Shown: positions 10,072-10,600 of the stretch, one piece after another
Layout of the letters: each line of letters opens with the position of its first letter
Position numbering within the stretch: the first letter of the stretch is position 1
DNA from: a virus
Reading direction: 5' to 3' (one strand)
Virus record (IMG/VR): IMGVR_UViG_3300035497_000528
Length of the DNA: 56,236 nucleotides
Notes under the pieces: generated by a model
What the model saw: only the letters and a program-made list of their open reading frames with translations
Databases searched by the model: none
What the model was told of the DNA's origin: nothing
Translations under genes and position numbers: made by a program

Positions 10072-10255
10072 TCTCCTTTCATTTCTATTTAACTTTTATC
10101 TTTAAAATAATTATATCAAAAATTAAATAAAAAATCAATTACGGATTTTTCATTTCAAATTTCCATTTGTTCCTTGGGCGATTTTTCATTTCATTTTTCT
10201 AAATCCCTTCTTGGACCCTCGCTTCTCCTCCCGCTCGAATGAAATATCGCACGGT

Positions 10256-10600
10256 AGAAATACAAATTTTGGAGCGAAGCGACAAAATTTGTATTTCCTA
10301 TAAACTACTAAAATTGGAACGAAGTGACAATTTTTGTAGTTTTTGTATAGTAATAGAGCAAACTACAAATTTTTGTAGTAAACATTTAAAAATACAACAT
10401 TACTACAAATTTTTGCTACAAATTTTTGTAGTAAATCACAATACTTTCTACAAAAATTTGTAGCTAATTTTTATATTTTCTACAAAAATTTGTAGAAATC
10501 TTGCTACAAATTTTTTAATACTTTTATCACCACAAAAATACAAATTTTTGTAGAAAATCACCTTATATTACTACAAATTTTTGTAGTAACTATTGAGCAA
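10256..10600. repeat. array of at least 9 palindromic 16-mers CTACAAATTTTTGTAG / CTACAAAAATTTGTAG plus a large hairpin aaatacaaatttt..aaaatttgtattt; candidate origin or operator array
   Basis: copies near 10363, 10401, 10417, 10447, 10479, 10503, 10538, 10570; flanked by AT-rich direct repeats tttttcatttca (10140-10200). Confidence 0.6.

Follow-up and report, generated by a model that had tools for sequence, protein, structure and literature searches.

We analyze here an array of short inverted repeats, and the adjoining gene for a putative DNA-binding protein, in a 56,236-nt stretch of phage DNA (IMG/VR virus record IMGVR_UViG_3300035497_000528), referred to as the window. The window is a segment of a very large phage genome of at least 175 kb, with near-identical IMG/VR contigs reaching 175,638 bp. 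Nearly all genes in it are encoded on the + strand, and the array belongs to a short minus-strand exception, a cassette that comprises, in order, a gene of 60 amino acids (aa; p60, 11166-10984), a 127-aa gene (10987-10604) whose start overlaps p60 by 4 nt, 530 bp of non-coding DNA, a 134-aa gene (gene 9667, 10071-9667) and a terminator (9668-9647). The array lies between the second and third of these minus-strand genes, as the initial annotation of this DNA had stated. The 127-aa product combines a DUF6291 domain with a helix-turn-helix (HTH) of resolvase/Hin type.

Structure of the half-site array

The array is made up of TACAAA/TTTGTA half-sites, 19 of whose 79 occurrences in the window are concentrated in the 368 bp between 10258 and 10625 (binomial P = 2e-24). 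Palindromes of the form TACAAA-N(0-8)-TTTGTA occur six times in 56 kb, always within the array and always with a two-base center (N2). Counting both strands, the sequence CTACAAATTTTTGTAG is matched 14 times with up to three mismatches, every match falling in 10363-10586, against 2.0 +/- 1.2 in shuffled sequences. This main array (10363-10586) contains full 16-bp sites at 10363, 10416, 10448, 10480 and 10571, all exact, a further full site with one mismatch at 10538, and 13-nt partial sites at 10403 and 10504. A degenerate first site, TTACAAATTTTGTTTA (10604-10619), is embedded in the end of the 127-aa gene, where its half-site encodes, on the minus strand, the final leucine codon and the stop codon (TTG TAA). 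The initial annotation had counted at least nine copies of the 16-bp palindrome; the array it recognized is real, but only six of the sites are full and the remainder are partial or degenerate.

Each site is a 7-bp inverted repeat about a TT/AA center, and since this center is not palindromic every site has an orientation. The distances between the centers of successive full sites (53, 32, 32, 58 and 33 bp) mostly correspond to whole helical turns. Toward the hairpins the array contains what we refer to as the core (10333-10378): tandem half-sites at 10333 and 10342, a 15-nt spacer (TAGTAATAGAGCAAA) and the inverted site at 10363. Comparison with nine near-identical strains shows all sites to be invariant, with the four substitutions found in the array located in spacers or at a partial-site junction.

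Conservation of the gene-array pairing

Conservation was assessed on 18 further loci from large uncultured phages encoding homologues with 35-56% protein identity; some of these records are duplicates, and several of the contigs span 139-197 kb. Loci were found with a 14-sequence subset of the family, the full 40-sequence alignment being too diverse for this purpose. With the exception of locus L144, the 600 bp located 3′ of the homologous gene contain 9-26 half-sites (14-41 per kb) in every locus, compared to 0-2.2 per kb elsewhere; in L144, which has a mere 310 bp of downstream sequence, there are four (13 per kb). The sites of these relatives begin at or just past the stop codon, and the overlap of half-site and stop codon seen in the window (..aga aat TTG TAA) recurs in L125, L126, L130, L136 and L143. 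Of the 12 related loci displayed, 11 show a core-like arrangement, [TTTGTA n TTTGTA]-17..19 bp-[TACAAA n TACAAA], with the core spacer retained as gtttgctctatta in the subgroup to which the window belongs (L125, L126, L130 and L136) and reading gttagtataat in distant loci. The bases flanking the half-sites vary, being CTACAAA in the window and TTTTTACAAA in most relatives, as does the inner spacing of the palindromes (2, 4 or 5 bp). Since both flanks and spacing differ, the 6-bp core of the half-site is the part that has been preserved.

In 17 of the 18 related loci the DUF6291 gene is immediately preceded by a p60 homologue, and a homologue of the 134-aa protein is present in three of them, which leaves gene 9667 outside the conserved core module. 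The p60 product matched no family in domain and PHROG-type profile searches, and its single-sequence AlphaFold2 model, with a predicted local distance difference test (pLDDT) score of 67 and a helix-strand-strand-helix topology, is of too low a quality for a fold search. In one of the distant loci, L127, the DUF6291-HTH gene appears to be split by a frameshift into two open reading frames (ORFs; 3992-4207 and 4268-4414), yet this locus carries the largest array seen, with 26 half-sites over some 480 bp. A 28% tblastn match in L124 proved a false lead, since it falls within a 930-aa repetitive ORF that has no array.

Because the linkage of gene and array is conserved in all 18 loci, we consider it very probable that the array is the cis-linked cluster of cognate sites for the DUF6291-HTH protein encoded immediately upstream, with conserved linkage as the basis for proposing binding. 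The product of p60 possibly acts together with this protein at the array.

The DUF6291-HTH protein

The 127-aa protein matches PF19808 (DUF6291) with an E-value of 1.4e-13 (51.2 bits, against a cut-off of 27.2) and HTH_7 with an E-value of 0.003, at 18.0 bits and hence below the cut-off of 23.8 for that family; HTH_7 is matched by 24 of 40 family members. A profile built from these 40 members matches the DNA-binding region of gamma-delta/Tn3 resolvase (E-helix end, arm and HTH) at 3.6e-6 (1gdt). The AlphaFold2 model of the 127-aa protein has a pLDDT of 93 and is all-helical, its N-terminal bundle leading through a 29-residue helix and a GRRKR arm to a three-helix HTH, and a Foldseek search with this model matched the HTH alone, to Hin and resolvases. 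Taken together, profile matches and model identify the protein as one of sequence-specific DNA-binder type. An exhaustive search places it in a family of 353 cluster representatives. No mention of DUF6291 was found in the literature searched, and the short-form cassette had no DNA or protein match in the GenBank phage collection; a word-indexed protein search returned self hits only.

The likeness to the DNA-binding domains of Hin and gamma-delta resolvase resides in the succession of a GRxK arm and a three-helix HTH. The half-sites also resemble those of hix and res in joining a short specific block (TACA) to an A/T tract that would suit minor-groove contacts by the arm. Unlike these recombinases, the protein lacks a catalytic domain, has an N-terminal DUF6291 domain and is paired with many sites instead of a single crossover site. 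The initial annotation had described a replication-associated N-domain followed by an HTH. The HTH is borne out by these results, but the N-domain is DUF6291, to which Pfam assigns no function, and its link to replication runs only through the longer relatives described below.

Hairpins at the end of the array

Two hairpins built from half-sites close the array on the side of gene 9667. Hairpin A (10258-10296) has 14-nt half-site arms and presents the apex GAGCGAAGCGA on the + strand; hairpin B (10304-10340) has 13-nt half-site arms with one A.A mismatch and presents GAACGAAGTGA on the same strand. The former is the long half-site hairpin noted in the initial annotation, which did not list the latter. 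Both fold much better than shuffled sequences (z about -7.5). The apex of hairpin A can be read as a tandem G.A, followed by GC and a GAA triloop, that is, as a mini-hairpin of d(GCGAAGC) type, and in hairpin B a G:C pair has been replaced by A:T in a compensatory manner; the two + strand apices are thus GC[GAA]GC and AC[GAA]GT, each with a GNA loop closed by a C:G pair in fixed orientation.

Related arrays likewise end in one to three hairpins, whose stems differ wholly between loci (GCCCC/GGGGC, GTCC/GGAC or CAC/GTG, instead of the half-sites of the window) and whose apex type is shared: the sense strand of the cassette has C[TNC]G or C[TNNC]G, and the opposite one, which corresponds to the + strand of the window, has C[GNA]G or C[GNNA]G. 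In each of the 12 non-redundant loci examined, hairpins with a C-GNA-G apex terminate the array, and an exception in loop type, GTAT, was found in L125. The 11-mer GAGCGAAGCGA or a close variant of it occurs in the window, L126, L130, L136 and L137, and the apex TCGCTTCGCTC, as read on the cassette sense strand, is found in identical form on an unrelated stem in L126. Within a 740-bp zone of the 12 non-redundant loci the apex motif occurs 23 times in the orientation just given and 3 times in the other, and outside this zone 57 times in each. Based on this orientation bias, the strand that folds appears to be the + strand, as DNA or RNA, and not the cassette mRNA.

An identification of the hairpins as ordinary terminators was considered and set aside for the window, where only 2 of the 47 other perfect hairpins have this loop type and where the stems are neither GC-rich nor followed by U-runs. 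The hairpins of L125, L126 and L141 do score as terminator-like, and may be terminators in those loci. In addition, L125 contains a copy of the GAGCGAAGCGA 11-mer (5685-5705) in opposite orientation to the cassette, within a small hairpin (AAAATTC..GAATTTT) directly 5′ of the start codon of the 134-aa protein homologue. Positions 10215-10245 of the window, in a GC-rich block beyond its hairpins, resemble an interrupted version of this L125 hairpin.

The stretch between hairpins and gene 9667

Beyond the hairpins lies a GC-richer block of around 50% GC (10200-10257), the most variable stretch among close strains, which separates them from the downstream promoter and has GC-rich counterparts at the equivalent position in L137-L141. 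Between 10144 and 10199 the minus strand carries two copies of GAAATGAAAAATC, 36 bp apart and just 5′ of the -35 hexamer of that promoter; the direct repeats pointed out in the initial annotation were recovered here, as GATTTTTCATTTCA at 10144 and 10180. The promoter itself, a strong sigma-70-type element of sequence TTGATT-17-TGaTATAAT (10110-10138, minus strand) identified by promoter scan, precedes gene 9667. Similar elements are present in relatives, with TTGATT-17-TGgTATAAT found in L141 and visible in L138 and L139.

The order of elements beyond the hairpins is shared by relatives, running from a GC-richer block through AAATGAAATGAAAA motifs to a TTGATT-17-TGnTATAAT promoter. The AAATGAAATGAAAA-like motifs lie near the downstream promoter or in the 5′ untranslated region (UTR), and in most related loci they take the form AAATGAAATGAAAA(A)T, often beside CAAGGAAC. 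The proposal that AAATGAAATGAAAAAT is a genome-wide promoter motif was rejected, as it is not a general element in the window.

Longer relatives and the link to replication

Longer members of the DUF6291 family provide the connection to replication. P0067 consists of a DUF6291-HTH module, an asparagine-rich linker and a DnaD domain (TIGR01446, 1.4e-13). The Riemerella phage protein GRNRAP2_500 combines DUF6291 with Phg_2220_C and is encoded after Erf and YqaJ recombination genes, and Nitratiruptor phage NrS3_41, which has DUF6291 only, is encoded between a repressor/cro region and VRR-NUC and terminase genes; both genes, from isolated temperate phages, have positions consistent with a replication module. 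Rep_3 theta-plasmid initiators likewise carry Phg_2220_C at their C-terminus (PMC4490491), and the domain occurs in a phage "replication protein" adjoining a G39P-like loader (PMC7924643). Further searches did not extend this link: a jackhmmer query with the DnaD portion of P0067 gave nothing more among the long forms, PHROGs assigned the long forms to no family labelled replication, and when the neighbours of long-form genes were compared to PDB the sole result was an integrase in L152.

Seven long-form genes contain repeats of their own. They start with A-rich repeats whose unit is 10-11 bp, or 20 or 24 bp in two of the genes, and continue with 6-bp repeats, mostly TAATGT/A; all sit in linker-coding DNA directly after the GGRP arm, in long forms from five phyla (Bacteroidota, Campylobacterota, Tenericutes, Eubacteriales and Bacilli). 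Since whole codons do not fit an 11-bp period, the repeats look like a feature of the DNA, and their position relative to the DNA-binding module is that of the array in the short form. These in-gene repeats suggest a role as lambda-O-like initiators for the DUF6291 proteins encoded by prophages of several phyla. The repeats were located at 5228-5353 in L128, at 5257-5387 in L129 and in L151-L155, which are phages and prophage-like elements; they are of AAAACC type in most cases and appear at the protein level as low-complexity N-V-N-D-N linkers.

Interpretation as a replication origin

We tentatively interpret the array as an iteron-type replication origin, or as an origin-control locus, of this group of huge phages, a reading that is the best supported of those considered and to which we give slightly less than an even chance. 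Two traits of known origins are found at the locus: a cluster of repeated sites, comprising six full and three partial sites plus the half-sites of the hairpins, and the location of these sites beside the gene for the protein that would bind them. In phage lambda the origin lies within or abutting the O gene, and its iterons are inverted repeats bound by O dimers. The oriL of SPP1 is placed in the same manner with respect to the gp38 initiator gene, within or abutting it (PMC6316719). The locus in the window resembles both systems in having a repeated-site cluster at the gene of the presumed binding protein, with an array that starts from the stop codon and, in the long forms, repeats inside the gene. 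Unlike lambda O and SPP1 gp38, the protein encoded here is an unrelated one, of DUF6291 plus resolvase-type HTH; its short form has no recruiting domain at the C-terminus, and the sites have no clear AT-rich unwinding element beside them. The order of elements (iterons, hairpins, GC-rich block and AT-rich stretch) is also reminiscent of RSF1010 oriV, which contains iterons, GC-rich and AT-rich segments and the ssiA/ssiB hairpins. It departs from that origin in that both hairpins lie on one strand and have stems composed of iteron half-sites, and no RepB′-type primase was identified.

Under the origin interpretation, the divergent promoter region at 11.2-11.45 kb would drive expression of p60 and the 127-aa gene, presumably early in infection and with the host RNA polymerase. 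The resulting protein would bind TACAAA half-sites through its Hin/resolvase-like HTH and a GRxK arm reaching into the minor groove, forming dimers on the 16-bp inverted repeats, as suggested by the conserved linkage. A spacing of 32-33 or 53 bp, equivalent to three or five helical turns, would place these dimers on one face of the DNA, and they could then assemble a higher-order complex beside their own gene in the manner of the lambda O-some. Transcription from the promoter of the cassette would also pass through the array. Opening at the core and the hairpin end would expose the + strand, on which the two mini-hairpins (GAGCGAAGCGA and GAACGAAGTGA) might, more speculatively, mark a priming or loading site.

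Judged by its sequence, the apex at the array end belongs to the d(GCGNAGC)/d(GCGNNAGC) class of mini-hairpin signals, as found at the complementary-strand origin (oric) of phage G4 and at RSF1010 ssiA, whose apices are likewise of C-GNA-G/GCGAAGC class. This "extraordinarily stable mini-hairpin" class has been reported at the G4 primase site, at RSF1010 ssiA (CCGAAGG) and at the early promoters of phage N4 (PMC13037366). A more specific proposal, which we regard as quite doubtful, is that the mini-hairpins signal initiation on single-stranded DNA in a huge phage with a double-stranded genome: once the DUF6291-HTH complex had opened the origin, they would fold on the + strand, resist single-strand DNA-binding protein and position a primase, or else a polymerase that reads hairpins as at the N4 promoters. 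If true, this proposal would amount to a new origin architecture and to the first function for DUF6291, that of a lambda-O-like origin binder distributed across many phyla.

Several results weigh against an origin at this position. No distinctive unwinding element emerged from a duplex stability scan of the window: with its 77-82% AT the array is more stable than many intergenic stretches of the window. The AT-rich unwinding element that the initial annotation had placed at 10140-10200 is not supported, since the block is 70% AT and of median duplex stability; the AT-richest local stretch (10080-10140, 90% AT) coincides with the gene 9667 promoter, and the GC-rich block stands between it and the array. 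The GC-skew check proposed in that annotation, run within the 56 kb, showed positive skew on both sides of the cassette and no switch at the array. We assign this result low weight, because it covers 56 kb of a genome of at least 175 kb and because skew tracks gene strand; the dip at the cassette arises from its location on the other strand. None of the scanned ORFs of the window was found to be a replication gene, and gene content is instead rich in tRNA and RNA-repair genes. At the protein level, domain search of the 127-aa protein revealed no recruiting domain, DnaD-like or otherwise, and DnaB_2 (Pfam) was detected in just 2 of the 48 longer relatives. That a few relatives have DUF6291-HTH fused to GIY-YIG or homing-endonuclease domains further implies that it is a general DNA-binding module and not a marker of initiators. 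Of the initial proposal of an origin or operator array bound by the adjacent HTH protein, the pairing of gene and array stands, in 18 of 18 loci, but the unwinding element is not supported.

Alternative explanations

The main rival, less likely than an origin and in our estimate unlikely, is that the array serves transcriptional control. The DUF6291-HTH protein would then be an early regulator whose multi-site complex represses or activates either the + strand promoter-like element of the core or the downstream TTGATT-17-TGnTATAAT promoter, or else acts as a roadblock or insulator with the hairpins as terminators. Palindromic sites next to the gene for a small HTH protein, in a cassette flanked by sigma-70-type promoters, are what such a system would look like. 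A + strand match, GTGACA-16-TATAGT (10324-10351), does overlap the core and two half-sites and has a weaker equivalent in L126; distant relatives have a TATAAT-like hexamer in the core spacer, the downstream promoter is conserved, and the terminator-like scores of some hairpins fit the scheme. When read by eye, however, the core sequences of the distant group contain no usable -35 hexamer, and the core promoter is therefore not conserved. The sites, moreover, are poorly placed for this role: no half-site is found at the gene 9667 promoter (10110-10138) or in the divergent promoter region (11167-11478), and all of them lie 3′ of the regulator's own gene, unlike in autoregulation. The suggestion in the initial annotation of an operator array for gene 9667 is weakened by this arrangement, and in relatives the gene that follows the array varies or is missing. 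With 10-26 half-sites over 170-480 bp the arrays also far exceed typical operators, and the in-gene repeats of the long forms are ill suited to an operator role. If the regulatory explanation were nonetheless correct, the array would still represent an unusually large conserved set of sites, serving phage DNA-binding proteins of a new family.

A non-replicative nucleoprotein site (a partition centromere, a genome-organizing or anchoring site, or pac) bound by a small HTH adaptor is improbable. Its models would be ParR/parC, TubR/tubC and small terminase, and the phased short repeats beside the gene for a small DNA-binding adaptor do resemble parC of R1 and tubC of pBtoxis. The HTH region also weakly matches small-terminase (phrog_309) and ParB-like PHROGs, but these matches are confined to the generic HTH. 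In contrast to parC and tubC, there is no partner nucleoside triphosphatase, with no ParA, ParM, TubZ or large terminase gene among the scanned ORFs of the window, cassette flanks included; the sites lie downstream of the gene and not at its promoter, and the relatives have replication-type domains, in the form of DnaD and Phg_2220_C fusions. The arrays are internal in all assembled contigs, hence not at a physical genome end, and on these grounds a genome terminus or cos site was rejected too. Least probable of all is a res-like accessory site for recombination or resolution, bound by a resolvase-derived protein without the catalytic domain. This explanation would account for the homology of the C-terminal half of the protein to the E-helix end, arm and HTH of gamma-delta/Tn3 resolvase, and res sites are likewise clusters of inverted half-sites. 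Against it, neither the protein nor its neighbours have a serine-recombinase catalytic domain, the orientation of the cassette is fixed in all relatives, and the number of sites is much above that of res.

The interest of the origin interpretation lies in the fact that replication origins of uncultured huge phages are essentially unmapped. The pairing of gene and array would offer a concrete candidate for both origin and origin-binding protein across an entire phage group, in which a lambda-like logic would be implemented by a new protein family together with an unusual, strand-specific mini-hairpin module.

Genomic context

In the divergent promoter region of the cassette (11167-11478) the single strong sigma-70-type match is on the + strand (11335-11363). 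To the left of the cassette, positions 9222-9660 constitute a non-coding stretch of about 440 bp that contains a terminator-like hairpin (9252-9283), a promoter-like TTGACA-17-TATGAT site (~9301-9330) and a GGGG..CCCC hairpin (~9390-9412), followed by some 220 nt of low-complexity sequence, extremely CT-rich on the + strand and with many CTCC/TCTC motifs. This stretch could be a non-coding RNA; an Rfam search of 9100-11600 returned nothing but chance miRNA matches, both at gathering and at E-value thresholds. On the other side of the cassette, a 62-aa product (13324-13512) matches a gene that in near-identical contigs carries a PF14354 annotation (Lar restriction alleviation).

Further along the window, a complete sigma-70-family factor with regions 1.2, 2, 3 and 4 is encoded by the phage at 23232-24125, followed by 27 tRNA genes on the + strand (24785-38264). 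An additional Rfam tRNA match at 38061-38184 (124 nt) has no ARAGORN call and is possibly an intron-containing or otherwise unusual tRNA. Between 39939 and 56000 lies a set of RNA-repair-type genes that includes phrog_850 "RNA-binding protein" (39939-41453), a Thg1-like tRNA-His guanylyltransferase (44305-45150), an RlaP-like protein, two metallophosphatases, an RNase T-like exonuclease, a cREC_REC protein, an RNA ligase (49838-51196), YqeY and an AAA_33 kinase. The same region encodes an 814-aa protein (41589-44033) with the shoulder and repeat domains of major vault protein (PF11978, 3e-21; PF17795), which is unusual in a phage.

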